The notes beneath the pieces are model-generated. The model saw only the letters and a program-made list of their open reading frames with translations, was not told the origin of the DNA and did not search any database. Position numbers and translations under genes: made by a program. From Catajapyx aquilonaris (taxonomy: Eukaryota), in assembly GCA_000934665.2 (NCBI GenBank), contig KZ538201.1:62001-103036 (forward strand): a stretch of DNA of 41,036 nt. The letters run 5' to 3'. Positions 12,074 to 38,858 of the stretch are shown here, in pieces; the first letter of the stretch is position 1; the number at the start of each line of letters is the position of its first letter.

Positions 12074-13850
12074 CTATTATGTTCATCAATGTTAATTTTA
12101 TTCTCAGTTGAAAATTAAGGACATTCAGATAGTAATTGAAGCTATATGCAAATAATCTGGGCTTAGAATAGTCAAATTCCTGAACATTTCAATTGACGCC
12201 TAATAAAAATTGCGATTTGAAATATTTCTGCACTTTTTTACACACCATGATTACATTGTATTATTTACATAGTGAAGTGACGCAACCCTTATTTCGAGAT
12301 AATCGCGAATTCTTCTTTAGCAAACCGGCTGAGCACTTGACGACAGACTTCTCCATGACCTTACTCATGTCTCTTATCTTATATTCTGGATTGGAATTTC
12401 AAAGAGTGTTTGCGAACATCCAACCTCACCACACCACACCGTATTCATTGATATCATTGTGTCAATATGAATGACCAGACCTATATTGCAAATCCAGTTG
12501 AGACTATTGCTATAGCCATTTTGCACGAATCTTTGTCCTTTTTTTAATTCTGGATATTTCTGACTCTTTACATGCCACTGAAAAATATATGTCGTTTGGA
12601 GCCTGTTTGCACCAACCTGCGACTAATAATAATAGAGGGTGTCCCAATGATATATTCGGAGACACGTCTCCCGATTTGTTGAGCAGGGTTTCATTTGGAC
12701 GTTCACCTGTGCACTCAACATTGCGACATTTGGGCAAGCCTGCAATAATTAAAGGGGAGGTGGGCAGTTCGGTTAATAATTTTTTTGCAACAATGAATTA
12801 TTCGAGCACCTCACAATAACTTTACTCTCATTGTTATAATAACAGCACTAGTAATTTTTGTTTTCTACAATAATTCATTATGTTTGAAACGAGAAGAATA
12901 GTGCTACTGTTGCAATAATTTATTTAGTTAGTTGTTAATAAATAAATAAATAGATAGATAGATGGATAGATAGATAAATAAATCAATAAATACGTATCTT
13001 TATTTGTGCACGTATAAATTAATAAATTTATTTCCCTGTTTATTAGTTATTTACTTAATATTTATTCAGTTATTAATTAATTAATTGCTATATTATTCAT
13101 TCAGCTATTAATTAATAAATTAATTAATTTGTCTGTTATTTACTTATTTTTTATTTTTTTATCTATACTGCATGCCTTATTTACAAGGTTGGACTATTCT
13201 AAACATATCTGTTGATTATAGTAGTTGCTTCCATAATCATGCATTGATCATACACGTTACGTAATGCAACAATATGTAATTTTTAGTATCCGGTAATACA
13301 CCTAGTATACATCATGGTTGGTTTGGCGCTGTTTTTGCGACGTTGCATTTTGTCGCTCAATTTCAATCCACGTAACTTACATTTTTTTTATTGTTTTTGA
13401 CAAATTGTGACACTAACCTACTTTTTTTTAGGAGTCTTATAATCTCTGGCTTCTAGAATAAATATTACCGAGCATTGTCGGTTCTAACAAGTCTCAACTC
13501 CTTATGGGTTGTAACTCACGGGTCATATCTACGTAAAAAAAAAATACAAGTAACCAGTAGGATTGCGACAATTATGACACAAAGGTAGGTAATTGGGGCA
13601 CAAAAAGTTAGGCAATTGAGATACGATGTTATCAAGTCTTCGATCGGGATTGTAAAAAAAAGAGAGGTGATAAATATATATATTTTTATCAAATCTTAAT
13701 TGACACTATTGGACTCCTTTTTCTGGCACCATTATTTTGCAATATGAAGTTCTCTTGGGGGGGGGGGGGGGANTAATATTGTAGGCATTTTTCTAAATAA
13801 GTTTCCAGAAATCCCAAATACTGTATATGAACACTGAGAAGGGAAGTATA

Positions 13851-13930
13851 ATCTGTCTGTATGTATATAAAAATCAATGTTTGTTTGTTTGTTTGTCCAA
13901 GCAGAAATTTGAAACTACTTATCTTGTGAC
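13851..13930 (+). mobile_element. Possible Helitron-like 5' fragment
   Basis: TATATAAAAATCAATGTTTGTTTGTTTGTTTGTCC...AAACTACT resembles the 5' ends of common non-autonomous arthropod Helitrons. Recognition by pattern only. Confidence 0.35.
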
Positions 13931-15306
13931 TAATGACAATATGAATCAACATGACTGTCATGCCCACATTAATAGTACTTAACTGCCTCATTTTAATCCC
14001 CAAAATTAGCTCGCTTCCTAGGAATGTTTCCGCAACAATATTGACGTCAACGTGACTAACAATTGCTCATGACGTCAGGTACGTGAGAAATACGCATACA
14101 TGACTGCTCGAAAACTTTTTTTAAAAAAAGGAGGATGAGTAGGTATAATGACAGTGAATTTTGATCATACAGAGAGAGGGGGTCTTGCGCTCATGCTTTT
14201 GTTGCTTGCAAATAATGCAATGAGATTCACGCGAGGACGCCTCGCATTAGTTCAGGAATATGGGGTCAGTCACGGTCCAATTCAGCAGAGGTCAAAGAGT
14301 GCAGAAAACGGACACAGCCAATGCCTCCCTGATGATGATGAACCCACAAAAGAATATGAAACGTGTACAACAAGGTGCATGTAAGCAATTGATGACGTGT
14401 GGGAAAATTGTGTTTAAATTTGTCATGAGCCTCTATTTGGTTTGACGTCATCATGTCTAAATACAGCTTCAGTAACGTCACAAAAATATAATTTGTTTCA
14501 AGGGGTAGTGTACTATTTGTCCCCCCCCCCCCNCCCCCCCAAAAAAAAAGGTCCACGTGTCCTGGCTTACAGAACTGTCAAAATTCATTAAAGATGACAT
14601 CTGTAGAAAAGTAAATAATGGAGTGCTCATCATTATACATAGCACCATGCATTGTTGATGTCAGATTTTGGGTACTGTCTTATTGTTGCTTTTCTTCGGT
14701 TTCTGGTATAAACAGTCCATAACTGTTCATATCTTCCTCCCTCTTGGTCTGTGGACTAGGCCAGGGCACTACTCTGTACACACACCATTGTTGGCTTGCA
14801 ACAATACTACCGCACTAAAATGTTGGTTGCTGTACTGTATGTAATAAAAGCATGTCTCAGGAAGTGTTTGTCTCCATTTTTATTTATTTCTTCCAACAAT
14901 GACAAGGAGTACAGCGCTTTAATCAGGACAATTAACGAACACATGGCAATTTTAGCTTTTTAAAAACATTGTCCTGTTTAATTGTAATCAACTGCAGTGT
15001 ACCTTGGACATATCTGAAACTTTCCTCCACATCATTTTTGTCTCCACAACTTTTAGTACCGTACTTACTGATCTTCAAAAGTAGTTGCTGGAGCAAACAA
15101 TCAATTTCCAGCAGCGCACCTCTTTCTAAAAAGAGGTTGCTTCCGTTTCAAGCAGGTTGCTAGGAGCAAACAATCCCTGTTGACCCCCCCAGTGAATGAA
15201 CCACCTGTTATTTAAATTCAAGTTGTTATTTTAATAAGTGGTTATATAATAGCGTGGATTAATTTTTTATATTTAAAGTTTTAAACGAAAGCGATTTTTT
15301 TAATGA

Positions 15307-15525: not shown

Positions 15526-18500
15526 ATGGAGGATCCGGAGGGCAAGTTCAGATACGTCTACAGCTCGGACCTGGACCTCAAAGTTCAGATCAAAATGTGA
15601 GTATCCTCTTTTGTTTGTCTGTTTTTTGCGCAATGCAAATGTTATCAGTCAGACCTAGTTTATTGGCCAAAATTATTGCATAAGTAATGCCCGGGGGGTC
15701 ATGCCAGTATGAGACGCATCATGTACATGCAATGCGTACGTGCACATCTTACCACTTGTATGTAAAGAGCAAACTGTAACGTGATGCATCGTTTACTTGC
15801 AAAAATGTGTACATGCTCATTACGCCTTGTCTGTATGGAGTCAACTGTAACGAGATACGTCATGTACTTGCAATGCGTACGCGCCACTTGTCTGTAAAGC
15901 GTAATCTGCTGTAATGAGGCGTTACAAAATGTGTACATGCGCATTACGACTTGACCGTTAAGGGTAATGAGATGCAACGTGTATTTGCAGTGTGTACTGG
16001 CACCTCGTGCGACTTGCCTGCAAAGAGTAATTTGTAACGAGATGCATCGTTTACTTGCAAAAATGTACATGCATTACAACTTGTCTGTAAAGAGTAAACT
16101 ACAACAAAATGTGTATGTGCTTATTGTACAACTTGCCAGTAAATGCATCGTGTACTTGCAATGTGTACGTATGCACATTATGACTTCGCTGTAGCGTAAC
16201 CCATATGTGCGTACATGTTTATCTTATGACCTATTTGCATATTTACAGCGGCACACTGGAAGGGAAGAGAGAGAAGCCCGAGTATGACAAGCTGCTGGAA
16301 GATCCGATGCTCAAATTTTCAGGGATGTACCAAAGCAATTGCTCCGATCTCTGCGTACATTGTCAGGTAAGAAGGTACGAGCTGAGCGATTGGGCAATGG
16401 TAATTTCACGGTGTTGCTTTCAGGTTTATGTGGATGGAAAACCTCTGGCGCTTCCAGTGATGACGTCGTACAAACCGTTTACATCCAGGTGGAAGTGAGT
16501 TCATTTTTTTTGGTTAAATTATCTGACTGTTTAATGAATTACCAGCTTAGTATGAAATGTTGTAAAAGTTAACTTCATAACACACCTAAGCCGAAGAATA
16601 ACTGCAAAATTTTTGAATATGAAGTAAATTATTTTTGCGTGTGCTTAAAATAAAGGCTCTCTCCAATCCTACTGCGATATTTCAACACGTGGATGTTTTT
16701 ATCCTGACCATTCCTGCTACATTTTTTTCCGATATGAGAATGTACATTGAACGACAAGACTTAGAAACTTTCTCTGGATTAGATAGTGTGCGATAAAGGA
16801 GTATTGTATCAGATATTATTGTGACTCCCTTAATTCTATATCCTTTACGTAAAATTTGAGCTGACTGTTGGGAAGAGCTTTATCACGTATGATTAATTGC
16901 TGACGAATGTGGATTTGCATGTTGACAAATGTATTGAACAAATGTTATGCTCAAATGTTGTTTTGGGCGACTGTGACCTCCATTTGTTTTGTTTATAAGA
17001 AGCAGTCACTACATTTGAGTAATGACGTGATATTCGCTCTGAACATTACTTGTCTATATTATGTCTATAGTTACTCTGCCTCATGCACATTTTAATCGTC
17101 CTACAGCTGGAATGAGTGGGTGAGCCTTCCGCTACTGTACAGTGACCTTCCCCGCAACGCAGTTTTGGCCTTGACCATATTCGACTGTGGCGGACCCTCC
17201 AGACTCATCCCAGTCGGTGGTACCACCGTGTCACTATTTGGGAAGCATGGAGTCTTCCGACAGGGAATACTTGACTTGCAGGTCTGGCCAGGAAGGTCAG
17301 CCGATGGTGGTAACGTTACGACCACGCCTGGGAAAGGACAGGGTGAAGGAAAGGAGAAGATGCATCGACTCTCGAAGGTGAGATTACCAAATTTTTAGTC
17401 GTAAGGTATTCTCTTTGACTACTACATTTTTATGTGATTATTTCAGCTGACCAAGAAGTACCGCAACGGCCACATGACCAAAGTGGACTGGCTGGATCGC
17501 TTGACTTTCCGTGAGATTGAGATGATCAACGAGCGACAGAAGCGCGAGTCTGAATTCATGTACCTTATGATCGAGTTCCCAGTTGTCGAGTTTGACGGCA
17601 CTGAGGTTTGTTCCTCCACATGTCTGTACTTATGTAATCTTCTGTCATTGCACTGAATTATGCCAATATTACTGATGACTAATTTTAGCAAACTGTAGCT
17701 ACTGTCTGTCAAGAGAGCAGATGCATTAATTCTTGTATGACGTATTTATTTTTTGTGACTATTGTTATGTGAAGCGCATGGATTAGAATTACTTCCGGGT
17801 TGCATTCGTTACAATCGCCACAAGTTTATTATCTGCAGATTCCTAACACACAAATCGTATTGCTTCATGTCATTGAAAAAAGTTACTCTTTCCGTGTTCT
17901 CATTTCCATATTTAATTGCAGTATTGTGTGATATACTACGAGAAGGACGGAGATGAACCAAACCACTTCAGGTCCGAAGCTGAGATCGTGTGCGTGCCTG
18001 ATTTTGAGATCATGAAGGACAACTTGGTGGAGAGCAAGCACCACAAGCTGGCTAGGTGTTTGCGTAGTGGGGTGTCCGACAAGGATTTGAAACCAGATGC
18101 GTCCACTAGGGACCAGCTCAACACCATTGTTGCATACCCGCCTACAAAGCAACTGACAGTTGAGGAGCAGGACTTGGTCTGGAAGTTCAGATTTTATCTC
18201 AGCAATCAGAAAAAGGTACGCATTTCGTGCAGTATCCGCAGTATTACAAAACTAAATTGCACCTCTAATTTCAGGCGCTGGCAAAGTTCCTGAAATGCGT
18301 TAACTGGCATGTTCCAACAGAAGCCAGGCAAGCTTTGGACCTGCTTCAGAAATGGGCTCCTATGGATGTCGAAGATGCGCTGGAATTGTTGGGACCCAAT
18401 TTTACACATCCGTTGGTCCGAAGATATGCTGTCACTCGTCTCAAACAAGCACCTGACGAGGTGCGCTTAATTTTATTTGCGGCGTATTTCTCGGTGGATT

Positions 18501-20593
18501 CTGCTTAACTGTTGTGTTTCTATTCGGCAGGACCTTCTCCTGTACCTGCTTCAGCTGGCTCAGGCCCTTAAATGGGAAGACTTTGAGGAGATCAAGTCCG
18601 GCTGGCTCCAGACTCAGAGCCTCAAAGAATCTGCCCCTATCCTTCAGACGCAAACTTCCTGCAGCGGGGCTTCAGAATCAGGAAGAACCGAGAGGAGTTC
18701 CAGCGTCGGAAGCAGTGTTGGAGAAGCCACGAATGGTAACAACACTGCTTCGGTGATGCAAGTCCAGGTGGAAGCTGGACCATCTCTGATCGAAGGGGCT
18801 GAAGTCACGTCTGAATCTGTTCAGAAGGAATCTGACATTAGCACATCGGACAGCCGACTCATAGACCCGTTAGCCGCTGGGTCGTGTGATCTGGCCACCT
18901 TTCTCATACACAGGGCTTGCAATAATTCGCTGCTGGCCAACTACTTTTACTGGTTAGTTTTCTGCTTCACTCGCTTCCTTATCGCTTATCGGACAACTGA
19001 GTTAATCACGTTTCTCACGCCTGCAGGTATTTGCTAATAGAGTGCGAGGACCATGAGTCTGCGGTTTTGAACCAGGACTCCCAAGTGCGTGAGATGTACC
19101 TGACTGTGCTGAAGCGTTTCTCGAAGGTTCTGCAGAGAGGCGGAAGGGAATGGCAACTGAGGAGGACCTTCCTCAACAGGCAGCAGACATTCATCGACAA
19201 GTTGGTTCTCCTAGTCAAGACGGTGGCTCGGGAGAGCGGGAACAGGAAAAAAAAGGTGTGCTTCAAACATTATTTCATTAAAAATTATTCGATAGGAACT
19301 AATATTTTCCCCCCTATTATTGTTTTTCAGATTGAACGTCTGCAGGCTTTACTTTTCGATTCGGATGCGTTCAAGTTCAACTTTGCAAGCTTCGAGCCTC
19401 TTCCTTTCCCCTTGGATCCGGAGGTGAGCATCAAGGGCATCATTCCCGAAGAGGCGAACCTGTTCAAGTCTGCCATGATGCCCTGTCGCTTGACCTTTCT
19501 AACGACCCAGGGGACCAAATACATTGCCATTTTCAAGCACGGTGACGATCTCAGGCAGGACCAGCTGATATTACAGATTATTACTCTGATGGATAAGCTG
19601 CTCAGGAAGGAGAATCTGGACCTAAAGCTTACGCCTTACAGGGTTTTGGCAACGAGTAGCAAACACGGTACATTTTTGTTATACACGTTATGTGTACGTT
19701 TCGGTTCATGTACTCAAGACACCTATTTTGGGTTCAGGTTTTGTGCAGTTTGTGACGTCGACCCCAGTAGCCGAGGTGTTGTCAGCAGACGGCTCTATAC
19801 AAAATTTCTTCAGGAAACACAACCCGTCTGAATCCGGTCCATATGGGATTCAGGCTGAAGTTATGGACACATACGTCAAGAGCTGCGGTGAGTTGATGGC
19901 ATCTTTACCAATGAATACTGAGCAGCTTTTGCACTCTCGAGTCTTTCTGTGAATGGTTCTCGGGAGATTTTTAACAATTTTGTCAAGTAATTTATTTTGT
20001 TAACAGCTGGGTACTGTGTGATAACTTACCTTCTGGGAGTGGGTGACCGTCACTTGGACAACCTGCTTCTGACCAAGTCAGGGAAGATGTTCCACATCGA
20101 CTTTGGGTACATCCTCGGAAGAGATCCGAAGCCCATGCCACCTCCAATGAAGCTTACCAAAGAAATGGTGGACGCCATGGGAGGGATAAACTCCGAGTAC
20201 TACCAAGAATTTAGGAAGCAATGCTACACTGCCTTTCTTCATCTCAGGAGGTTACTCCTTTATTTGCGTTATTTTGAGTCGCATCATTCCAAATGCCGAG
20301 CGTCGCCTGGCATTTTTGTTTTATTACACTACTACTATATACTCATTATTTTCATCCGCAGACACTCAAACCTGATCCTGAACTTGTTCTCGTTGATGGT
20401 CGACGCAAGTGTTCCAGACATTGCTCTGGAGCCTGACAAGACTGTGAAGAAGGTTCAAGACAAGTTCCAGCTCCATCTTAGTGACGAAGAAGCTGTACAT
20501 TACATGCAGAACATTATAGACTTATCTGCCTCCGACATGGTGGCAGTTCTGGTTGAGCAGCTGCACAAGTTTGCACAGTACTGGAGAAAGTGA
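15526..20593 (+). CDS. PIK3C3: Class III phosphatidylinositol 3-kinase catalytic subunit (Vps34), 927 aa
   Basis: Exons 15526-15596, 16249-16366, 16424-16494, 17107-17377, 17447-17605, 17922-18215, 18275-18460, 18531-18952, 19027-19255, 19331-19667, 19738-19887, 20007-20250, 20362-20593 sum to 2784 nt in one frame. C2, helical and kinase domains; [44 protein letters not shown] and the Vps34 C-terminus HKFAQYWRK. Confidence 0.98.
15710..16200. repeat. Degenerate minisatellite of about 70 bp filling most of Vps34 intron 1
   Basis: About 8 units of GAGATGCATCGTKTACTTGCAA..TGTGTACATGC..ACTTGTCTGTAAAGAGTAAACTGTAAC. Confidence 0.8.
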
Positions 20594-21401
20594 ACAGGGT
20601 CTCGTTTTTGTTATTTTTTTGGCCATTTGCATGTGGACATATTCACGGGTGGGGATTACGGGAATCAAGTCTTTCGGGGGATTTGTTGTCTAGTGGAGTT
20701 AATTATGTCCATCTCAACAGTGTAGTGTATTTATTTGCATTGTTTTGCATACATGTCTATGAGGTATATTAAATTACTGTTGTATAATATCGCCTGAATT
20801 TGCTTTTAGTAATCTTGCAAGCTAATATTTTGAAGGTTTCTGGGACGCACATTACATAACAAAATTACTGTTTGTCTCGATGGTGATGACAATGATTTGG
20901 GTAGTCTGGATTTCCAAGATATTACGCAGACAATTATTTATTCGTGTTTACAGTTGGTACATCCTAGTCAAGTAATTTTTTATTTGTTATTACAACGAGC
21001 CCAAGTCTAAGAGGAAGTGCAAACCTTACGAACCACCCTGTATTTTTCTAACTATTGCCATCAGCTATTACAGTGTAACAGCAGAGATGATGCCTGGTTA
21101 TTCATAAGCTGGCGGGCCTAATTTTAGATGCAAGTTTTGCCTTAAAAAGAAAACAATAACACAGGATGTCATTGATTCCGTCTTCATGAGTCATCGTACA
21201 TCTACTGGGATGCAAGGCGTAAGCCCAGAGTAAGTAAGATACTGTTTAGTACTTATGATTTTTTCATTATTATCAATATAAATTACTACAATTATTATAT
21301 TCTGAACTGGAAAGGGTTTTGTGGCATGAAATCATAGGAAGTCCGTCGTTACATACTCGTAGGTGCTGACATCTGGTTTTTGTTCGCAACGTGTGTCGAC
21401 G

Positions 21402-24163
21402 ATGAGACGACGTTTCGTGAGGGTGGAAAGGGCACCAGTGCCGTGTCGTAAAATTATTTTGTACTTGTTTATAATTGTCATCCTGTACTCAATATTTCGT
21501 CCAACTCACAAACGACATCATGAAGATACAGACTGTCCATTTCAACATGATCAGGGGTAAAGTCAAATCTCTTAAATTTTAAAATTAATTATTTTATTTG
21601 TAAAAAGTGTGCTAACATTTTTTCCTCCCATACTTTAGAATACCTGCATTGTCACCGTGTGTCCATCCAGAATTAGATGTTCACAACAGAGACTTGGAAA
21701 AATATTTTACGCATGTTGAGCTGCTCACTTGTGATGTCGAACCTGATTGGGTTCATGTTGTCGGTTCAACTGCCAAAATTTCTATGATTGCTCTTGAGAA
21801 ATACGGAGATATTGAGTGCAATGTTACAGGTAGGTTTTAGTAGTGATCAAGTACAGTTGCGATGGACTTGGACTCACACTATTTGCCCTGCAGATATAAT
21901 ACGACAAGATGACTGGACCAACATTGCGAATCAAGCTGTTACTCTGAACACTCATTATTCCTTGTCTCGCAGTGATTTTGTCAAAGTGAAATGCTTCGCA
22001 AAGTCTGTACGCAAGAGGTAGGCATAATAATTGATTCCAAACACATTCTACTTGTCAATCAGTCAACTCCTGCTTTTGTTATTATGTTATGAGAACAATT
22101 TCTTTCGTTTACCGTATGCCTTAATTTTCAGTTGGGAAAATGTAATGGCAGGCATGCGTTACAATTTTTCTATCCATGCGAGAAGTGGTTGGAAGAAGAT
22201 TCCAAAGGATGGACTTAGGTTGAACGTACTTGTGTTTGGATTTGCATCAGTATCGAGAATGCATTTTATTCGCAAACTACCCAAGTCATACAAGTACATG
22301 ACTAAAGAGTTGAATGCGGTTGTGCTTGAAGGTTACAATATTTTAGGGGATGGCACTCCTCAGGCACTCATACCCATTCTTACTGGTGAGTTTCATAACA
22401 ATTTCTGTGGCTGTATCGCAGATTAATTGAGTACATTGATGCAGTAACTAGACCTAGTTTTTGCATTCATACACTCAACTGTGAGCCGACACTTGCGTAT
22501 GTAATTTATTTATCATAGGAAAGACGGAGCCAGAATTGCCCGAAGTCAGAGCAAGAATGACCAGGGAAGCCTCACATGTTAATGTCTACCCTTTTATCTG
22601 GAATGAATTTCAGAGGCATGGATATGTGACAGGTAGCTTTGGGAAATGAATATGTAAATATTTAAATATTCAAGTGCCATTCATAGATTACTTATCTAAT
22701 TGCAGCATATGCAGAAGATTGCCCAGAATTTGGAACTTTTACATATCGGCTGAAAGGCTTTAATGAAATGCCGACTGATCATTACATGCGACCATTTTTC
22801 CTGGAGGTTAATCGTGAGATGGCAAACCACAGAAAGTTTTGTCTCGGAAGCGTTCCCAGACACAAGGTCAGCCAATGTCCAAATATTGTGCCTAAGCATC
22901 ATTATGCACTATGTGTAATTATGCAAATAGCAGATGGTAAAAAACGTAACACGTTGCTGATATTTCAGATTTTGATGAACTACGTTGAGAATTTTTTCCA
23001 CTACTACTATCACAAGCCAAAATTTATGTTTGCATTTCACGGAGAACTATCGAATTCTGACCTCAACTTAATTGAAGCCGCAGATGGTGACCTCTTAGCA
23101 ATGCTGCAGAGTCTTCACGAAGCAAATTTACTAAACAACACCTTACTGATAATCATGAGTGATCATGGAGCAAGGTAATTCTTTTTTCAAATTAGCACTG
23201 TAAATCGCATTAGCCATGAAAACTGTGTTTTCAGGTCTTTGAAAATGCGACAGACTCAGCAAGGGAAGCAGGAGGAAAGGATGCCAATGTTCAGCCTTAT
23301 TTTTCCTCCGTGGTTTAGTAAAGCTTACCCTGAAGCTTTTTCTAATGTTCAGTAAGTAAATAAGTACCTGCAATAAAAATTTTATGCATGAATTTTTTCA
23401 TTAGGTACACATTTGTAATTTCAGAGACAATGCTCAACGGCTGACGACACCACTTGACATTCATGAAACACTGCGTAATGTCCTGCGTCCCACATACGAA
23501 GAACCTGCAAGCTCCAGAAAGCGGTCATTCAGCCTGTTTCAAAGGGTAGGGCTGCCTTGTTTGTAAGTACGAGTACCGTAATACAACTTGCCCATTTTCA
23601 GATTCCTCCAGAACGAAGCTGCTTTCATGCCGGGATCGCACCTCACTGGTGTTCGTGCCTGAATTGGCAACAATTGTCCCCAACAGACCACCACGTTCGC
23701 AAGGCATCCAAAGCGGCAGTAGACTTCCTGAACAAATACACAAGTTCAAATAGAGACAAGTGTGCTTTGCTTTCACTCTTCAAGGTGGTGTGGGCATCCA
23801 AATTGCTACCAATCATGAGTACGTCTCAACAATATGCCTCAACAATATTGGATAATGCAATTAAATATTATTTCTGCAGGTGTTATGCATTACAAGCAAA
23901 GTGCAGATGCAGATGGATTTGCCCCGGACCTTTCAGATAACACGAGGGTTACTGAGGAGACATACCAAATTTATTTTTACACACAACCAGGCGACAGGCA
24001 TTTCGAGGTGTCCATCAAGCATTATGTGCAGGATGATACGTACGACATGAAGCCATCGCAAGTCAGCAGCATGCAAAAACGTGAATCAGTTGGCAATTGC
24101 ATTACGGATCATTATGCTGACCTGCAGAGATTTTGTCATTGCAAATATACAGTTGGCAATTAA
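21402..24163 (+). CDS. DUF229-family protein (alkaline phosphatase/sulfatase-like superfamily), type II membrane anchor, 647 aa
   Basis: Exons 21402-21556, 21639-21829, 21894-22017, 22132-22385, 22519-22632, 22706-22866, 22969-23174, 23235-23351, 23425-23545, 23602-23818, 23880-24163 sum to 1944 nt in frame. Motifs NVLVFGFASVSR..LPKSY, GYNILGDGT, YPFIWNEF, PTDHYMRPF, MSDHGAR, EERMP, LTTPLDIHETL, RSCFHAGIAPHWCSC. Likely 5'UTR intron 21230-21362. Confidence 0.92.
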
Positions 24164-24230
24164 ATATTTAGGAACTCAAGCTGTATTCCATGTGAAATTA
24201 CCATCAATCCAAACCGGATGTATTCTCGAT

Positions 24231-25510
24231 ATCGCATAGATTTAGTACAGCTTAAAAGTTATTTGCTAAGCCCAAATAAGGTATATCTCCAGCCATTATT
24301 ATGCATTGCTATAACAACATGTTTACAAAGCCATGGTGAAATATATTAGTTATTATTGATTAGTGTGAAAGGTAGCTGCACCAATAGTCAGTTCAGTCAG
24401 ACAAAGTCACGCAGGTCCCATCTCTTTAAGTTGCCTTCAAGAATATTTCACGGACTTCATAAGTGCTTCTGGTCGTAGAACAAGGTAGGCATTTTAATAT
24501 TGGTCACTATCTCCACCGTCCCCCATTTTTTTTGCAAATTTAGCCCAAAATACATCAGGTCTAACTCAACCCATTATTGTAATTGTTATAACAACGTGGT
24601 TACAAAACAACGGTGAATATTAGTCGTCACTGATTAGTTGAGAAAGCAAACAGTAGTCGGACAGGTCGTCTCTCAGTAAGGGTATCGCCGGGGTATCGTT
24701 AACTAAAAAAATTTGAACCTATCATTTGAATACACTTTTCAAAATATGGTACACATGATCCTGAAAAATCAATCATATTTAGTTATAATGTTATAATTTT
24801 GATACTCGTCTACACAGCCTCCAATTTTTTTTTGAGACTAATGTAATAAAAATAAGTAGTGGTACTTGAAGGGACTAAGTAAATGTGTTTTTTTTGCATT
24901 GATTATACAACAAATTAACGCACTGAAATGGTTTAGGAAGACATTTTTGATTGAAAAACATGATCATATCACAAAATAATATACCATAAAATAGCTATTT
25001 TAATAGGAGGCGTAAAATTCAGAGAGTACGTACAGGGACCAGATTTTTTGAAATTATTTTTTTCTATTAATGTTAACTTGTCTCCATATTTTTAGCCATG
25101 TATTGCACAAAGTTGATGTTAACATCTGCCCCACTCTCGTAATATTTCACACACCACCTCACTGTTAGACACTGGTCATAAGGCAAGGTAGGCCTTCAAA
25201 AATATTGGTTGACATCTCCTCCTTTTCCAGTGAATGTTTGCTTTCTTGATAGCCTATTGCTTAGATTTAGTATAGCTTAATAGTGCTTTGCAAATTTTGC
25301 CCAAATAACCTCAAGCCATTATTGTAATATTGCTATAACAACATGGTTGCAAAGCAATGGTGAAATATTAGTTATTATTGACCAGTTGATAAGCAAACTC
25401 TGGCAGGGTCAGACCTAGGTTCAGACAGCTCCTATCTTTCAAGCCGTCACGGACCTCATAAGACCATTTCTGGTCAAAGAGCAAGGTAGGCCTTTTAATA
25501 TTGGTCACCC
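24231..25510 (+). repeat. Three diverged tandem units of about 290 bp, each ending in a splice-donor-like CAAG/GTAGGC; the second is interrupted by an AT-rich insertion (about 24675-25140)
   Basis: Shared CCATTATT..TTGYTATAACAACRTG..GGTGAA and CTGGTC..CAAGGTAGGC..AATATTGGT; donor GT at 24485, 25188 and 25486. Confidence 0.8.
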
Positions 25511-25906
25511 CCCTTCCCCCTCATCGTTTGCTGTTATCATCCTACACCTCCTATTAACATTAATATATTCAAGCATGTGCCCTGAACATATTGTAAGCTT
25601 ATTAGTTACAGGACACCATTTAGTGTCGCTATTTTAAGTACCTCTCTAATTTCATGCAATTATAGCAGTGGTAATAAGCAATGAGTAATGAGCTATCCGA
25701 CATGATTTTGTAGATGCCACGCAGCAGCTACTTATTTAGACTTATTATTGAGACCACAATCACAGCTGCGATGCTTAGCAACTGGCCATAATATTGTTAA
25801 AGTTTTTAACATAGAATGATGCTATGAGAATAATATTACACAAGCATATTACAGGCTGTCACATCCTTCACATGGCAGCCTGACTGCAGCAATTAACATG
25901 TCATTA

Positions 25907-26244
25907 GGGGAGGTGCGGTGGCCGAGATGGTAACGTCTCGGCTTGCTGAGTGAAAGGTCCCAGGTTCGATCCCCGCCTGGGAGTTCCCTTTCGCCTGCGT
26001 CGGGAGGGTCTCTGACCTGCACCAAGGAGGTGTCTGGCAACCTAACCTCCTAGGGGACTGCACATGACCCCTTTTCAGACAATGCACTTGCACATGTTCC
26101 CTCCCCAAAAATCCCTACCCTTACCCAATATCCTTGACTCCCTGCACCGGTGATTGAAGAAAAAAATTGATAAATGCCAGAAAACTGATGATGGTGTGCC
26201 ATCCCCGTATAATGGCTAATAAGCCCTATCACGTTTAAAAAAAA
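25907..26244 (+). mobile_element. tRNA-derived SINE (family 1)
   Basis: Pol III A box TGGCCGAGATGG, B box GGTTCGATCCC, non-tRNA body, A-rich tail, degenerate TSD AACATGTCATTA/AAAATGTTATTA. Confidence 0.85.
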
Positions 26245-26492
26245 TGTTATTATAACAGTTTATTTCAAAACAGCCACGTTATAGCTATGATCCAATTTTA
26301 TAAGTCCAAATGCAACATATTAATTATTCATTATTGCATGTCATTACTTGCATAGTAATGATAAGAAGAGTAATGACTCAGAATCTCAGTGGATTCTCAG
26401 TGGGTATGAGTAGACAATAGTTTTATGGTTTACCCCTGATTCTGACTATTTCTCATCGCATGGCCTGCAGTTTTCTGCAGAAAGCAAGGAAG

Positions 26493-27839
26493 ATGTCATT
26501 CGCATACCAGTCATCTGGAAGTTCAGGACCATATTGCCAGCGTCAGAAGGAACTACAGGAAGAATGCTGGGACGAGATAGTGGAAGGAAGCTATGATCCA
26601 ACCGAAAAGTTGGACTCCGGTATCTACTTAGTGTGAGTCTCATAAAATAACACTGGGCAATAAATTTTGACAAAAGTTATGGCTCTGAAATTAAAGTACC
26701 AATTTCTTAATGATTTCGAGGTGCTAAACACCAATATGACAATGAAAATGCAAAATTTGTAATTCATAATATGCATACTGATATGCCATATTTGCTGTAC
26801 TTGCAGGGTGCCGCATGGTTTGACCAGAAAGCAGAGGAAGCATTACTACGAGCAACAGAGGGCCCGGTACCAGGTGATGAAGGAGCAGCAGTAAGTCAAA
26901 TTAGCAATTAGTAATGATAAGAAGGGTAATGTGTCCCATAGTGGATAAATTTACATGGGTATGAGAAGACAATAGCTTGGTGGTTTTACCCCTGATTCTG
27001 ACTATAATTTCTCATCACATCGTAGCAGATTTCAGTGCAAGCAGATGTCATTCGCATATCAGACTTCTATGGAGGAAAGCTCAGAAAGTAATTTCCAGCA
27101 TCAGGAAAAGAAGGAAGTATGTTGGGATGGTGTTGAGGAGGAGAAAGAATGTTGGGATGGTGTTGAGGAGGAGAAAGAATGTTGGGATGGTGTTGAGGAG
27201 AAGACATATGATCCCCTGCAAAAGTTGGAGTCAGGAATATACCTAGTGTGAGTCTCATAAAGTCGCCTCCAATACGTTTCAGCAACATTATTCATGGACA
27301 CCATGACATCAACAGATGACATCAGTCGTCAATAATGCAGCGAATTGAAGTCAAACCTATTGATATTATCTTTACCTGATGTTTCTGTATGAGTATATGG
27401 TGATTGCGTTAAGGAAAGTTTATGAAAATGGTTGTTACTGACCTCACCCCACCTTCTACAGTCTACAGTAATGTACGCAGACTGATGTGCCATATTTCCT
27501 GTACTTGCAGGGTGCCCCAGCTGCTCACAAAGTACAAAAAGAAGCAACACCGTGAAGAACTCTGGGCCCGGTACCAGGAGCAGATGTACAAGTAAGTCAA
27601 AAATTGTCTACCACCGTCATTCAGGTGTGTACAATGATTTGTGACTTTTCAGGATGCAGTATGATGCAAATGATGCAAAGGTGAAGAAACTAGGAAACGC
27701 AGAAGCAGCCCACGGACAACAGGCAGACAATTCCCAGATGACAGAAGAGAAGAACATGATCAAGGCCATGGTGTCCCTCAAAGTGACGGAAGACAAGGGA
27801 CTCAAGTCTAATCCTGCCAGCCGATATTCAAGGAATTAA
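26493..27839 (+). CDS. Predicted orphan protein, 236 aa, five exons, internally duplicated
   Basis: Exons 26493-26632, 26807-26890, 27029-27247, 27511-27591, 27653-27839 with GTGAGT/GTAAGT donors and CAG acceptors; all four introns phase 2; 711 nt stop-free. AATAAA near 28120. The true start could lie upstream. Confidence 0.78.
27115..27203 (+). repeat. 30-bp coding minisatellite (about 3 copies) encoding ECWDGVEEEK
   Basis: GAATGTTGGGATGGTGTTGAGGAGGAGAAA repeated nearly perfectly. Confidence 0.95.
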
Positions 27840-27884
27840 GATTGTGTTCATCTGCGAGACTGCGACATTCTGCTAAAACTATAG

Positions 27885-28089
27885 AACCCCTAAACTCCCC
27901 CTGGAACCCATATTTTTTGGGGGGCATGTTCTCCTCATAAAAGGACCGTCCATTTCCTCTCTAGCTAGAGGATGTTGCTTTTTGCCCTCCCGACCCCTAA
28001 ACTATATCCCCACCACCGGAATCTCCATATTTTTTGTCATATTGTCCCCATAAAGGGACCACCCATTGACTCTTTCTAGAGGATGTTAC
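27885..28089. repeat. Diverged tandem duplication of about 105-110 bp in the putative 3'UTR
   Basis: ACCCCTAAACT..CCATATTTTTTG..CATAAARGGACC..CTAGAGGATGTT present twice. Confidence 0.7.
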
Positions 28090-29055
28090 AGTTCGACGTT
28101 AAAACCTGTTACATAATCAAATAAATGGAAAAAAAATTGTTCATATCATCACATATTCAGCATACTGATTTTTGTGTGCAGCAATTGATTTTGGTGATAT
28201 CTCTTTACATCTCTGTGGCGACACTTCGCTGGCAACAGTCAACAATTTGCCAACAATTTTTGTCAACAATGAAGCAGATGTTGTCATTTGATCACCAAAA
28301 TGTGTCCTTCAAATCGAACAGTCCCGCCAATTTTTTCATACCGTTCCGTTCCCTGTTCCGTTCCTACAGTTTTCCAACCTGTCCGTTCCGTTCCGTTCCT
28401 TAGTTTATCAGTTTTGTTTCTTCTTTGATGTCACTTCCGGTTGTTTGTTCCTGGAACATTATTATTGCATGATTTGCAGTGAGTACGACAAGTGCACTGT
28501 ACTTCTTCTGGTAGCCTTCCCTTGCCACTGATCATGTCAGTTACATCCGAAGGTAGCCTGAGCACTTGTTCTGATGGTTTGTATTCACCTGTGGTGTTGT
28601 CCGCAGTTGTTGCATTGCAAAGCCAAAGAGCGTTGACATATGGTGACTGGTGTCTATGCCTCTGTTGATTATTTTCCTTCCAATGGAAGGAACACCTCAT
28701 TGCGGCTGAATATTAGTCCTCCCAGCTGACCTCTTGGCACTGCGGAGGTGCTAATAATGCCTTATTTCTACTTCTTGCATCACCATTGCTTTGGATCATA
28801 GAATATTCAAACAGAGGTATTGGTGCTCTAATAGTCTCCAAGACATGCTATTCAAGATGTCACTCATCGCAAGTAGGGAACTAATTCCTTTTCTCACATT
28901 TAGAAAATCGGTCACAATTATTTTTTGTGTGTGTGGGCTGGCACAATAAGCAGTGCTGCCCTTTCAATATGTGCAAGTAACTCAATTATTTTTGCTTGTT
29001 TGAACATTGAATTATTAATAATGTGCTATAAGCAGTTGCTGTACCACCCTGTATA

Positions 29056-31768: not shown

Positions 31769-32800
31769 ATGAAAATGGCTGAGCCACGAGGACAGCACAT
31801 TGTCACCTCTCCAGAAGTTCAGCCAATCTTCTTCCAGTGGTCCATCAAGAAGTACAGCTTTTTGAAAACCAGAGCTAAGATTAGCTCTGGTCCATTTATC
31901 GTTGGTGATCCTACGACTCCTACTGCATGGATGATTGATCATTTGGGGCAAAATGGTAATAGGTCGAGTCTGACGGCAAACCTGACTTACCTTCCACTTC
32001 ACAAAACTGCAGAAGATTTCCCAATCAAAGCGAGATTTACTCTCAGGATCGAGAACAAATTGGAGGGAGTTTTTTCTTGGGATTCAGGCCTGGTCGAATT
32101 CTCTGCAAGTAATCTGACCCTCGGAGGCAATCTTATAACCTTCACAGACTTGGCAGCAAATGAAGAAGCCCTGCTTCCAAATGATACACTCACCATTACT
32201 TGCAAAGGAGAGATTATGTGTGGGTTTCGCAGTGGGCCCCAAGAGGTTCCTATTAACATGGATATTGTTGCTCCTGGATTATCCACTGACATGAAGCATC
32301 TCCTGAAGTCCGGCAGAGGTAGTGATGTGAAGTTGATGGCGGGAAGATCTTCATTTCCTGTTCACAAGATCATTTTGACTGCTCGGAGCCCCGTATTTGC
32401 AGCCATGTTTGAACACGACACCCTGGAGAATGAGACAGGCGAAGTGGTAATCAAGGATGTGAAACCAGAAGTGCTGGACAGCCTGATTTACTTCCTGTAC
32501 ACTGACGAATCGCCCCCGGATCTGCCAGAAATGGCCACGGAGCTCGCTGCAGTTGCACAAAAGTACATGCTTCCCCGTCTCCAGTCAATGTGTGAGAACC
32601 ACCTTGCAAATGCTCTCACAGTAGATAATGTTATAGACACGTTGGGTGTTTGCATGTTCTGCAACTATTCAAGTAAACTGAAGAAGGCCTGCTTGCGTTT
32701 TGCCAAGTCACACATGAAGGAGGTGCAAGAAAGCGAGTCTTGGAAGGCCTTTCCCACTGGGGAAGTCGTTACTGCCCTTTTTGAGTTCTGCAATGTGTAA
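31769..32800 (+). CDS. Divergent MATH-BTB (SPOP/TDPOZ-like) Cul3 adaptor, 343 aa, single coding exon
   Basis: MATH-like FQWSIKKYS..LLPNDTLTITC; BTB SDVKL..FPVHKIILTARSPVFAAMF..YFLYTD..AQKYMLPRLQSMCE; BACK-like LTVDNV..LKKACL. A splice acceptor at 31759-31760 places the start at ATG 31769 or 31775. Confidence 0.92.
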   Translation: MKMAEPRGQHIVTSPEVQPIFFQWSIKKYSFLKTRAKISSGPFIVGDPTTPTAWMIDHLGQNGNRSSLTANLTYLPLHKTAEDFPIKARFTLRIENKLEGVFSWDSGLVEFSASNLTLGGNLITFTDLAANEEALLPNDTLTITCKGEIMCGFRSGPQEVPINMDIVAPGLSTDMKHLLKSGRGSDVKLMAGRSSFPVHKIILTARSPVFAAMFEHDTLENETGEVVIKDVKPEVLDSLIYFLYTDESPPDLPEMATELAAVAQKYMLPRLQSMCENHLANALTVDNVIDTLGVCMFCNYSSKLKKACLRFAKSHMKEVQESESWKAFPTGEVVTALFEFCNV

Positions 32801-34156: not shown

Positions 34157-37100
34157 ATGTCATTGGCAGTGAGGGTAAAGAAAGAAGAGGTGGAGGAAGG
34201 AGAAGATGTAACTGTGGAGGAGACCTGGCAGTTGCCCTTGAAGAAGGAGACCCCATCATGCTTCGATAGTGACTCCACGCTTATAGATGATGCGCTTCGC
34301 GAGATCAAGCAGGAGGCAGTGGAGGAGGAGGAAGAGATGGTGATGGCCATGTCCAGTGCAGTGGAAGATCAAGATGACCCTTTAGAACTTGGTTCCAGAA
34401 GTGTGGTACGTAATGACGTAATGTGGTGCCTATTTCGGGGTTTTTCCCTTGACTAAAAATCCGGACTCCAGTAATTACTTGAAGCAAAAAAAATTAAGTT
34501 CTCTGATGACTTACCGAACCTTCCGTCAAATATTATTAACGCGCTTCGCTAATATGGGACACTCCGGGCAAAAACTGGCGAAGCCGCCGCGCGCGCCATC
34601 TGTTGGCTCGGGGTGGGGTTAGCCCCTCAGCCCGCAGCCACTAGTGCAAATACGTCAATGTTTTCCAATTTAATTTAATTATTTCACAGCGTTTACGTGC
34701 ATGACCCGTGCCCCAAAAAATCAGAAATGATCTATATTAGGCCTACAGGTTAAGTATCCGGCTCTTTCGAGTGCTGACGCTCCATGCCACTATAAGGAAA
34801 ATGAAACGGAAGGGAAGCTATTTGTTTGGCTCTAATTACTGACGTAAATATCACTTAAGTGCTTAACAATGGGTTGGTCAAACACTTCATACTGCTGATA
34901 AATGATGTCATGCAATTCATGCCATATCACAGGTACTAGCTTGGTTGAACTTAAGTGGTATTAAGTCATACAGGTTTAAAAGAAACTCCAGGGAAGAATT
35001 CAACTAACAAGGTTCTAATTGTGCTTATTTACTCTATTACTCAACATGAATGCACCCTACTACGTTTCTTTTCATGATACACTCTTCAGGACATAGCAAC
35101 AATAAATCATTTCATACGCAATTAACCCTTAACTACTTAGGTGGAGCCGGAGCGGCTCCGACGGTATATATTTAAATTTCTGCTTATCAGCTAAATTGTT
35201 ATATTGAACTTTTCACATACAGAAAGTGCAGTTCAGATTATTAGGCTTCCCATAACGTACTAAAATCACTCGTCGAGTCAGCATATTCCGACAGAAAAAA
35301 AGGCCTTGTTTATGACTTAGTTACATCACGTTTAAATATGGTTGAAGCCGCTCAGGCTCCACCTAAGTAGTTAAGGGTTAATTGTGTATGAAATGATTTA
35401 TTGTTGCTATGTCCTGAAGAGTGTATCATGAAAAGAAACTTAGCATTCATGTTGAGTAATAGAGTAAATAAGCACAATTAAAACCTTGTTAGTTGAATTC
35501 TTCCCTGGAGTTTCTTTTAAACCTGTATGACTTAATTCCACTTCAGTTCAACCAAGCTAGTACCTGTGATATGGCATGAATTGCATGACATCATTTATCA
35601 GCAGTATGAAGTGTTTGACCAACCCATTGTTCAGCACTTAGGTGATATTTACGTCAGTAATTAGAGCCAAACAAATAGCTTCCCTTCCGTTTCATTTTCC
35701 TTATAGTGGCATGGAGCGTCAGCACTCGAAAGAGCCGGATACTTAACCTGTAGGCCTAATATAGATCATTTCTGATTTTTTGGTGCACGGGTCATGTACG
35801 TAAACGCTGTGAAATAATTAATTTAAATTGGAAAACATTGACGTATTTGCACTAGTGGCTGCGGGCTACCGAAGCAGGTTGGCATAGGGGATAGGGCGTC
35901 CGCCTGCTAATCGGGAGGCCCTGGGTTCGAATCCCGGGGTCGGCAACCCTGACCGTGGTTTTCTGTGGTTTTCCACGGTCTCCCTAGGATAATTCCGGGG
36001 TTGTTTCCATATAATAGGCCACAGCCGCTTTCTTCCTTCCCTATCCTTGGAGGTTGAAAGGCAATGCTGGGCCAACCTCCTTAATATCAATAATAACGTG
36101 GCTGCGGGCTGAGGGGCTAACCCCACCCCGAGCCAACAGATGGCGCGCGTGGCGGCTTCGCCAGTTTTCTGTAGAGGGAGTGTCCCGTATTAGCGAAGCG
36201 CGTTAATAGTATTTGCTTCCGTTACACGTTCCTGTAAATCTTCCTCTGATAGATGAAGTGTCAGAGGTGGTTCTGTCACATATCTGCCAGTTGATAATGT
36301 CAGCGTAACCTTGAGCTTTGAGGTTATGGGAATATTGAATTCGGTGTACAGATGACCTCATGGAAAGTATTCTACGCATAGCTACCTCTCGAATATGTTT
36401 TTCTGCATCAGTTACCATGGCTACAAGTAAATTCTCGGGATGCACCAAGAATTATCGTAGTATCCACAATGAGTTTCAGTTCACCACTTGGGCACCGTGA
36501 GAAGGATATAGTCCGTCATAGGTTCACTTGATGGTTGGATTATATTATACCATATCACCTCACCACAAAGCTGCATGCCGGTGTAGCCGAGGTCGACCAG
36601 TTTTTAGAAATGCACAATCTGGTGGCTAGGCTATACTGGCTTGACGGTATAAGGCGAGGTTTTTACCTAAGTTACATTAAGCTGGGTTCACATTAGCTGA
36701 CGATAGCATACGAAACGAACGAAACGGTACCGCAGACATATCGGAGCTACCGACCTTCCCTTCCATGTTCCCTTCCGTTTCCACCAATGGGAGAGGCAGA
36801 AAAGCGGCGGGGGCCTTCGTCTGCCTCCACCAGAGGGGTTGCCCCCACTCGCCAGCCACCACCCTGGCTGGCTTTTCTGCCTCCCCATTGGTGGATACGA
36901 AAGCGACGGACCAAACTACCGTAAAAAGTAACTCGCCCATTTTCACCATGACATAATTTCAGTTCGGTACTAGAAGCATTCCATTAAAAAATGACAAGGA
37001 TCAAAATTACAGAAATCTACCTCGGTTATTGCGGCATGCTGGCCACCCCCGGTTATACCGGCATGACGCTTTATGTGAAGTAATATGGTATTTATTGTAC

Positions 37101-38858
37101 GTAAAACCACATTGGAGAATACACTTTTATGATGAAAGTAGCGAGTTCCTGTAAGTTGACAGATGGGTCGGTAGTCAGTAGAACTAATGTAAATTTGAAG
37201 CACTCGTTTGGCAGTAGTGAGCCATCTTGCATGGGATAACTTCCTTTGTGGTGTACCAGATGGGGTGAAACATGCCTGAAGTACACATTACCAGGTTCTT
37301 GAATCATCAATATGTACTTGCAAAAAATGTCACAATGACGGCTCTCGTGGGGATTAATTACAAAAGAGAAAAGACGTCCATGTGGCTTGTGAACTCCTTA
37401 CTTTATCCACACTGCATGATAGAAATTGATGTACTCTGATTCATGTTTCAGATTGTGCAAGAGACCATTGAAGATAGAGATGAAAAAAATTGCTACCATA
37501 GTTCCCAGGAAAAAAATCTTAAGTCAGGACATTTGAAAACTCTTATGCGAAGTCATACAGGAGAGCGACCATTTCATTGTGAGGTGTGCCAGAAAAAATT
37601 TCTTCAATCACGTGATTTGAAACGTCACATGCGAACTCATACAGGAGAGAAACCATTCATTTGTGAGGTGTGCCAGAAGAAATTTTCTAATACATATAGT
37701 TTGAAACGTCATCTGCGAATTCATACAGGGGAGCGACCATTTCATTGTGAGGTGTGCCAGAAAAAATTTCTTCAATCACGTGATTTGAAATCTCACATGC
37801 AAACTCATACCGGAGAGAAACCATTCATTTGTGAGGTGTGCCAGAAAAAATTTCGTAACTCGACTAAATTGAAATATCACATGCGAATTCATACCAGAGA
37901 GATACCATTCATTTGTGAGGTGTGCCAGAAGCAATTTGATAACTCGACTAATTTGAAACATCACATGCGAACTCATACAGGAGAGAGATCATTCATTTGT
38001 GAGGTGTGCCAGAAGAAATTTTCTGCTGCATATAGTTTGAAAGTTCATCTGCGAATTCATACAGGGGAGCGACCATTTCATTGCGAGGTGTGCAAGAAAA
38101 AATTTCTTACTCAGAGTAGCTTGAAAGTTCACATGCGAAAACATACGGGAGCAAGACCATTTAATTGTGATGTGTGCCAGAAAAAATATCTTACTCCGAG
38201 TAGTTTGAAAGTTCACATGCGAATTCATACCGGAGAGAAACCATTCATTTGTGAGGTGTGCCAGAAGAAATTTTCTCATGCATATAGTTTGAAAGTTCAT
38301 CTGCGAATTCATACAGGGGAGCGACCATTCATTTGTGAGGTGTGCCAGAAGAAATTTTCTCATGCATATAGTTTGAAAGTTCATCTGCGAATTCATACAG
38401 GGGAGCGACCATTTCATTGCGAGGTGTGCCAGAAAAAATTTCTTACTCTGAATGGTTTGGAAGTTCACATGCGAAAACATACGGGAGCAAGTCCATTCAT
38501 TTGTGAGGTGTGTCAGAAGAAATTGTGTGATGCAAGTAGTTTGAAAGCTCACATGGGAAAGCATACCGGAGAAAGACCATTTAATTGTGATGTGTGCCAG
38601 AAAAAATATCTCAGGTCAAGTGATTTGAAATCTCACATGCGAATTCATACCGGAGAGAAACCATTCATTTGTGAAGTGTGCCAGAAGAAATTTTCTAATG
38701 CATATAATTTGAAAGTTCATCTGCGAATTCATACGGGGGAAAGATCCGTTATTTGTGAAGTGTGCCATAAAAAATTGCATGGTGTAATAAGTTTGGAATC
38801 TCACATGCAAATTCATACAGGGGAGCGACCATTTCATTGCAAGGTGGGCCAGAAATAA
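34157..38858 (+). CDS. C2H2 zinc-finger protein, 551 aa, acidic N-terminus plus 15 intact tandem fingers
   Basis: Exon 34157-34405 (donor GTACGT) joins in phase 0 to 37452-38858 (acceptor TTTCAG). Fingers CxxC-x12-H-x3-H with TGE(R/K)PF linkers. Additional middle exons are not excluded. Confidence 0.88.
35126..35377. mobile_element. piggyBac-type MITE
   Basis: TTAA-CCCTTAACTACTTAGGTGGAGCC...GGCTCCACCTAAGTAGTTAAGGG-TTAA. Confidence 0.8.
35868..36097 (+). mobile_element. tRNA-derived SINE (family 2) with 13-bp TSD
   Basis: A box TGGCATAGGGG, B box GGTTCGAATCC, central GTGGTTTTCC..AGGCCACAGCCGC domain seen in many invertebrate SINEs, (AAT)n tail; TSD GTGGCTGCGGGCT at 35855-35867 and 36098-36110. 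Confidence 0.93.
36216..37330 (-). pseudogene. Fragmented DNA transposase relic, probably hAT-related (hATm-type)
   Basis: Collinear frameshifted blocks MIQEPGNVYFRHVSP, KLSHARWLTTAKRVLQIY, PSVNLQELATFIIKVYSPMWF, HPENLLVAMVTDAEKHIREVAMRRIL, YADIINWQ, TEPPLT. Superfamily assignment is from recall. Confidence 0.7.
36550..37088. mobile_element. Old MITE with TA TSD (Tc1/mariner/pogo-type) splitting the transposase relic
   Basis: TA-CCATATCACCTCACCACAAAGCTGCATGCCGGTGTAGCCG inverted to CGGTTATACCGGCATGACGCTTTATGTGAAGTAATATGG-TA. Confidence 0.7.

Follow-up and report, generated by a model that had tools for sequence, protein, structure and literature searches.

Genes of the protocadherin and UGT1A type carry alternative promoter/first-exon modules that are spliced to shared 3′ exons, and some host genes of small nucleolar RNAs (snoRNAs) contain repeated exon–snoRNA units. 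Box C/D snoRNAs, approximately 70–120 nucleotides (nt) in length, are closed by a short terminal stem, with box C (RUGAUGA) lying towards the 5′ end and box D (CUGA) towards the 3′ end. Tandem exon duplication is common and often unannotated (PMC9013439), and a 2002 survey cited there placed it in approximately 10% of animal genes. Here we describe a candidate gene of five exons on the forward (+) strand of contig KZ538201.1 of Catajapyx aquilonaris, at positions 26493–27839 of a window of 41,036 nt, by which we mean the whole stretch of DNA analysed (all coordinates are window positions). The candidate gene sits in the gap between a DUF229 gene and a MATH-BTB gene.

In several respects the locus resembles the tandem exon duplications of PMC9013439: adjacent paralogous exons share the same phase, the intron flanks were copied along with the exons, and the second copy is easily missed by annotation. 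It differs from the typical case in that the copied block holds two exons and includes the start codon, and that both copies are in frame, so that the duplication may have yielded a repeat within the protein instead of a substitution. With the mutually exclusive clusters governed by competing RNA structures (PMC6071210) it shares a conserved intronic element before each duplicated unit; unlike in such docking/selector clusters, we find here no site complementary to both elements, and the exon copies are of unequal length (140 versus 203 nt). As in genes of the protocadherin/UGT1A type, each repeated unit has an ATG and a conserved upstream block, and there is one shared last exon. Here, however, each unit has two exons, there are only two units, and the upstream blocks are acceptor-like rather than promoter-like.

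All features of the model lie on the + strand. Exon 1 (copy 1 of what we call exon A) runs from 26493 to 26632, 140 nt counted from its ATG, with a possible start at 26471 if the AG at 26470 serves as an acceptor. Intron 1 (26633–26806, 174 nt) separates it from exon 2 (exon B, copy 1; 26807–26890, 84 nt). The proposed intron 2 (26891–27028, 138 nt) is nearly filled by the conserved non-coding block of unit 2 (26900–27028) and leads into exon 3 (exon A, copy 2; 27029–27247, 219 nt), which holds a conserved ATG at 27045 and whose first 16 nt form a linker homologous to the pre-ATG sequence of unit 1. Intron 3 (27248–27510, 263 nt), exon 4 (exon B, copy 2; 27511–27591, 81 nt) and intron 4 (27592–27652, 61 nt) follow, and the single-copy exon 5 (27653–27839, 187 nt) ends the frame with TAA at 27837–27839. 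Each of the four donors reads GTGAGT or GTAAGT (GTRAGT) and every acceptor is AG. The preliminary description of this stretch had proposed the same five-exon model, whose coordinates were reproduced exactly: all introns are phase 2, the internal exons measure 84, 219 and 81 nt, and 236 codons run without a stop. Splice-signal logic suggests that the five exons would be joined in a single messenger RNA. No AATAAA or ATTAAA was found between the two modules, so unit 1 lacks a 3′ end of its own and is not easily a separate gene. The sole canonical polyadenylation signal found in 27840–28400 is an AATAAA at 28120–28125 (+).

Intron 1 contains an AATAAA (26659) and an ATTAAA (26690), which would terminate transcripts after exon 1 if used. 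In the presumed 3′ untranslated region (UTR; 27880–28100), a unit of approximately 110 nt occurs twice, sharing a core of 18 nt at 27959 and, 111 nt further on, at 28070; as judged by eye, 27885–27990 resembles 27995–28095 over most of its length, and this may be a small repeat element.

Exons 1 and 2 are paralogous to exons 3 and 4, as the preliminary description had claimed: in exon A, 27 of the 47 residues of copy 1 are invariant, and in exon B the copies share 12 of 28. When the copies were searched against each other inside the window with tblastn, exon A gave E=7e-8 and 8e-7. The idea that a two-exon module had been duplicated captured part of the event: the exon pairs are indeed paralogous, but the unit also takes in conserved non-coding flanks and is a genomic block of approximately 560–700 base pairs (bp) rather than exons alone. 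Local alignment of 26343–26900 with 26900–27601 gave 447 identical bases among 512 aligned, and the block comprises approximately 130–150 bp before each ATG, exon A, the intron, exon B and approximately 10–13 bases beyond the donor. The right edge of the duplicated block can be read from intron 4, whose first 10–13 nt match the start of intron 2 exactly. The paralogous exons are adjacent, on the same strand and in compatible phase, as expected for an internal tandem exon-block duplication. One further expansion is visible within exon 3, where a 30-nt unit (27115–27204, +) is present in 3.0 in-frame tandem copies (96% matches). An acidic Cys-Trp-Asp motif of 10 residues, found once in copy 1, is thereby encoded three times.

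Conservation between the two units is uneven. Identity reaches 119/132 in the upstream block (26343–26470 side versus 26900–27044); within exon A it is 21/24 over the first 24 nt, 29/40 in the middle, with 63 gap positions, and 59/72 in the 3′ part. The ends of introns 1 and 3 are kept (23/27 at the 5′ end and 33/37 at the 3′ end), while the interior (51/67 with 169 gap positions) is essentially unalignable, which makes the duplication old. Exon B shows 55/78 identities, and all 13 of 13 bases after the donor agree. The non-coding islands are thus 85–100% identical between units, compared with 71–82% for the exons, and the 13 mismatches among 132 positions of the upstream block contrast with 27 among 56 third codon positions (p=2e-8). 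We favour constraint on these islands in both copies over later homogenisation, because they are short and separated by diverged sequence. Gene conversion is a less likely source of the well-kept flanks, given that what is conserved forms short islands around the individual splice sites, with diverged sequence between them.

Divergence between the copies is of a coding type. In ungapped blocks they differ at 15/55, 10/56 and 27/56 of codon positions 1, 2 and 3, respectively, so that third positions (27/56) change more often than positions 1 and 2 together (25/111; p=0.0013), and between modules the synonymous and non-synonymous values are pS=0.71 and pN=0.28. The synonymous differences noticed at first sight were borne out by the count, with 16 of 39 identical aligned residues using different codons. 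Length changes point the same way: the exon pairs (140 versus 203 nt and 84 versus 81 nt) differ by 63 and 3 nt, both multiples of three, whereas the introns (174 versus 263 nt) differ by 89 nt, which is not; the 203 nt is the length of exon A copy 2 in the pair comparison, the full exon 3 being 219 nt. When codon-usage log-odds were trained on ten coding stretches recognisable in the window, the proposed frame came out best in 5/5 exons; its total score was +52.1 bits, and its two alternatives had −60.6 and −54.3. The score of the proposed frame corresponds to 0.221 bits per codon, within the range of the training genes of the window (0.12–0.29) and attained by 2% of a null set of 194 stop-free non-coding open reading frames (ORFs) of at least 45 codons. 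Exon 5 has the strongest codon usage (0.35 bits per codon, attained by 0 of the 194 null ORFs). Codon-position divergence, length differences and codon usage are independent of splice-site choice, and all three indicate that the locus as a whole is coding; we consider it likely that a genuine protein-coding gene exists here or did until recently.

The splice signals are conserved in both copies as well. The acceptors of exons 2 and 4 have a common layout, in which a CTGAY motif places its A 24–27 nt before the AG, 12–14 of 20 positions are pyrimidines and the AG is the first after the motif. The last 45 nt of the conserved block share this layout, at AG 26470 before exon 1 and at AG 27025/27028 before exon 3; only 73 of the 2444 AGs in the window (3%) have a CTGAY motif at 22–34 nt. 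In unit 1 (26343–26470, +), the end of the block carries CTGAT/CTGAC (26436, 26442), then a run of pyrimidines and, at 26469–26470, the first AG that follows. In unit 2, CTGAT/CTGAC stand at 26992/26998 within intron 2, followed by a tandem TAG/CAG acceptor at 27025/27028. The upstream member of that pair, an in-frame alternative 3 bases before the proposed site, would start exon 3 at 27026 and lengthen it to 222 nt. Other AGs nearby (exon starts 27036, 27042 and 27045) disrupt the frame with six stops each. From AG to ATG, unit 1 spans 22 nt and unit 2 spans 16 nt, and each stretch is open and fits phase 2. The acceptor layout before exon 3 is the best support for a splice from exon 2 to exon 3. 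By the same token, the identical architecture before exon 1 suggests that an intron precedes exon 1, so the gene probably has a further exon upstream and more than five in total.

The explanation we prefer, with a probability of roughly 45%, is a single + strand transcription unit encoding a small, highly charged protein that grew by an old tandem duplication of a block. That the five-exon joined product is the real main isoform, probably with an extra 5′ exon, we propose tentatively, at a little under even odds. The block copied would have comprised the 3′ portion of an intron, with its branch point, pyrimidine tract and AG and approximately 75 nt more of conserved sequence, together with exon A, the short intron, exon B and its donor. 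With phase 2 at every junction and internal exon lengths divisible by three, such a copy could be spliced in directly, and the 16 nt that separate the old ATG of copy 2 from the acceptor would have become a coding linker. The default product would then be e1-e2-e3-e4-e5, consisting of two acidic-then-basic modules and a unique tail, and the 30-nt in-frame expansion would be a later event that multiplied one acidic tryptophan motif.

A number of observations weigh against this picture. The splice sites were picked with the frame in mind, so the open joined frame is partly a product of its construction. Exon B by itself is not significant in the cross tblastn inside the window (E 1.9–3.3). Module 1 alone scores 0.091 bits per codon, a value attained by 22% of the null ORFs, and exon 1 scores just +0.1 bits; with so unremarkable a codon score, the case for copy 1 rests mainly on the between-copy comparison. 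For the putative upstream exon, no GTRAGT donor is present on the + strand in 23900–26480, and a relaxed scan for upstream donors gave seven weak candidates, the best at 26150 (34-codon frame) and none of them convincing. Approximately 75 nt of the conserved block (26353–26428 and its copy) are not accounted for by splice signals. Finally, the retention of the ATG and first 24 nt in copy 2 (21/24) fits an independent start as well as it fits an internal repeat.

These last points lead to the main rival, which we regard as unlikely: that only one block at a time is combined with the common last exon, the products being either e1-e2-e5, of 136 residues, or ATG27045-e4-e5, of 156 residues. Two promoters could bring this about, with the conserved block as promoter or 5′ UTR, as could mutually exclusive splicing from an upstream exon. 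The symmetric exons keep all of these combinations in frame, the start region of exon A is as well kept as just described, the conserved block is longer than splice signals require, and no strong donor was found upstream of unit 1; tandem exon duplicates are, moreover, often mutually exclusive (PMC9013439). Both conserved blocks contain TGATAAG, which we take to be a GATA-type motif, and TATAA lies approximately 40 nt before the ATG in unit 2. Against separate use of the modules, the block ends in a branch-point/pyrimidine/AG layout for which a promoter has no need, and position −3, an A at ATG 26493, is a C at ATG 27045. The features that usually prevent joint inclusion in classical mutually exclusive pairs were not seen here: including both modules is in frame, the 138-nt intron 2 is not sterically limiting and no shared docking complement was found. 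The second rival sees in the locus a relic, either unexpressed or in decay, or else a non-coding transcript with a leftover open frame; it strikes us as no more probable than the first. Blank protein and homologue searches with no domain found, the low fold confidence described below (predicted local distance difference test (pLDDT) scores of 54.0 and 64.8) and the weak codon score of module 1 would all fit a relic. A relic would not, on the other hand, be expected to have kept both copies open, with in-frame length changes and an excess of third-position differences, while the intron interiors no longer align; the splice signals are likewise kept in both copies, and the tail exon scores above all 194 null ORFs.

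A different account of the conserved blocks, and an improbable one in our view, is that the element of approximately 100 nt before each exon A (26352–26449 and 26908–27007) is an intron-encoded box C/D snoRNA that was copied with its flanking exons. As in intronic box C/D snoRNAs, an element of the right size (approximately 98–100 nt) would lie in a short intron, almost filling the 138-nt intron 2, and is better kept than the exons. It has C-like and D boxes: the box C-like AUGAUAA (26358) falls within a 23-nt stretch that is 96% identical between units, CUGA closes an invariant stretch of 21 nt, and conservation is lowest between the two. A terminal stem of 4–5 bp closes the ends in both minimum-energy folds. 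The pattern [AG]TGAT[GA]A and CTGA spaced at 55–110 nt was found five times on the + strand of the 41 kb, and two of the five are these elements, although the pattern was chosen after viewing the sequence. Unlike in known hosts of box C/D snoRNAs, box C is imperfect (AUGAUAA departs from RUGAUGA at the sixth base), there is no clear D′ box and the host exons look coding. Rfam returned no match at the gathering score for the whole window, and none at E≤10 for the element on either strand. The fold z-scores are −0.41 and +0.75, and the CUGA doubles as a CTGAY branch-point motif of the kind also found 25 nt before exons 2 and 4, which explains it equally well. The snoRNA-host reading is compatible with the coding one. 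In its fullest form, which we think similarly improbable, the duplicated unit would be centred on a conserved snoRNA-like intronic RNA of approximately 100 nt rather than on the protein, with a young coding host growing by copying of ‘snoRNA + two exons’. If that were true, a former intron or leader would have turned into a coding linker, and the small RNA would be more constrained than the protein.

Pairing between the elements and other parts of the transcript, as in selector/docking systems, was also considered and is not supported, with no docking site common to both elements in ten duplex comparisons. Element 1 (26364–26434) and intron 4 (27592–27651) gave a duplex with a free energy (dG) of −31.8 and a z-score of −2.57, beaten by 0 of 40 shuffles, while element 2 showed no excess pairing with intron 4 (z-score +0.47). 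The core of the element 1–intron 4 duplex is, by eye, a 9-nt perfect complement, which may be a chance finding among ten comparisons.

Returning to the joined product of the preferred five-exon model, the predicted protein has 236 residues (approximately 27.8 kDa), an isoelectric point of 5.35, a grand average of hydropathy of −1.19 and no hydrophobic N-terminus. The acidic and basic halves attributed to the module in the preliminary description are evident in the net charges, which are −6.5 and −14.4 for exon A in exons 1 and 3 and +4.9 and +4.0 for exon B in exons 2 and 4. Exon 3 folded alone gave no secondary structure (pLDDT 54.0, predicted template modelling score 0.13), and the tail exon was modelled with modest confidence as two helices (pLDDT 64.8); both models were too poor for fold comparison. 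The tail is thus probably helical. The pattern [WFY]xx[LIV], which is commonly matched by chance, occurs at residues 26, 45, 107, 117, 127, 135 and 146 of the joined product; we take it to be an autophagy-type or SUMO-type motif and treat it as a lead only. With low confidence, we propose that the predicted protein would be an intracellular, largely disordered adaptor acting via short motifs. The acidic Cys-Trp-Asp motif (present 1 + 3 times) and the hydrophobic strand-like stretch of each module would be its working motifs, and the basic segment could serve as a nucleic-acid binding or nuclear-targeting patch.

Searches for relatives were run exon by exon, on contiguous translations. Consistent with the initial view that no domain is recognisable, Pfam gave only matches of E≥0.12. 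Neither exon 3 nor the tail scored anything in word-based protein searches set to longer proteins, and a profile of the two exon-A copies had 0 hits among 1,835,955,588 representatives. An Atlas search of exon 3 and the tail yielded no usable match, and a PDB sequence search found nothing for either. RAD51, the sole PDB sequence match to exon 1, was discarded as a relative (E approximately 0.5). In metagenome contigs, a protein-pattern scan confirmed 0 of 130 pattern matches, and ten loci picked up by a 19-mer (L001–L010) had only a 19–20-mer in common with the query and were set aside as chance matches.

A clear match to a known family or transposon ORF, which the preliminary description had named as a finding that would count against its view, did not turn up in the Pfam, protein, PDB and repeat searches. 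A transposon or viral ORF was rejected, there being no Pfam family at E<0.1, no enclosing terminal inverted or long direct repeats and no further copy in the 41-kb window. How much these blanks mean can be judged from a control: the MATH-BTB protein of the same window finds 18 proteins at E≤1e-10, none of them more than 44% identical (best 31–44%). The source organism and its close relatives are evidently absent from the protein collection, so that blank searches say little. In being short, charged and of low complexity, with no domain or detected relative, the product resembles those of orphan genes, though with near relatives outside the search space the term ‘orphan’ is neither affirmed nor denied. 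The same low identity makes the MATH-BTB gene look like a fast-evolving, lineage-specific copy.

The neighbours in the window were named via Pfam, and the DNA is animal genomic. An SLC12-type permease (AA_permease, AA_permease_N) is encoded by ORFs between 311 and 7627 on the − strand; a PI3/PI4-kinase gene has its match at 19001–20593, the DUF229 gene at 22687–23178, the single-exon MATH-BTB gene at 31769–32797 and a C2H2 zinc-finger array at 37440–38858. The PI3/PI4-kinase gene (16000–20600) has short introns and, along with MATH-BTB, flanks the region. Between the DUF229 gene and the candidate gene, 24230–25510 contains interleaved direct-repeat families with spacings of 277–1025 nt and 75–93% identity, which suggests two or three degenerate copies of one element. 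ARAGORN predicts a transfer RNA, tRNA-Ser(GCT), at 35874–35945 (+), and in the stretch at approximately 25930–26060 (+) the translation of 25950–26050 gave the impression of a tRNA-derived repeat; either could be the head of a short interspersed element rather than a working tRNA. The ORF translations at 13689–14066 and 14266–14577 contain X, so at least two N positions or short assembly gaps fall within approximately 13700–14550.

Taken as a whole, the locus adds one more case to a common process, the duplication of an exon block, here in a gene that is uncharacterised; the case is an ordinary one and opens no long-standing question. Its instructive details are the two-exon block of uniform phase, the leader turned linker and the flanks that are better kept than the exons. 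Tracks based on ORFs miss such genes, and conservation between internal duplicates can take the place of missing orthologues when coding status is judged. If the gene is expressed as proposed, it would illustrate how one step can suffice to double the product of a small gene, with a single shared phase preserving the frame.

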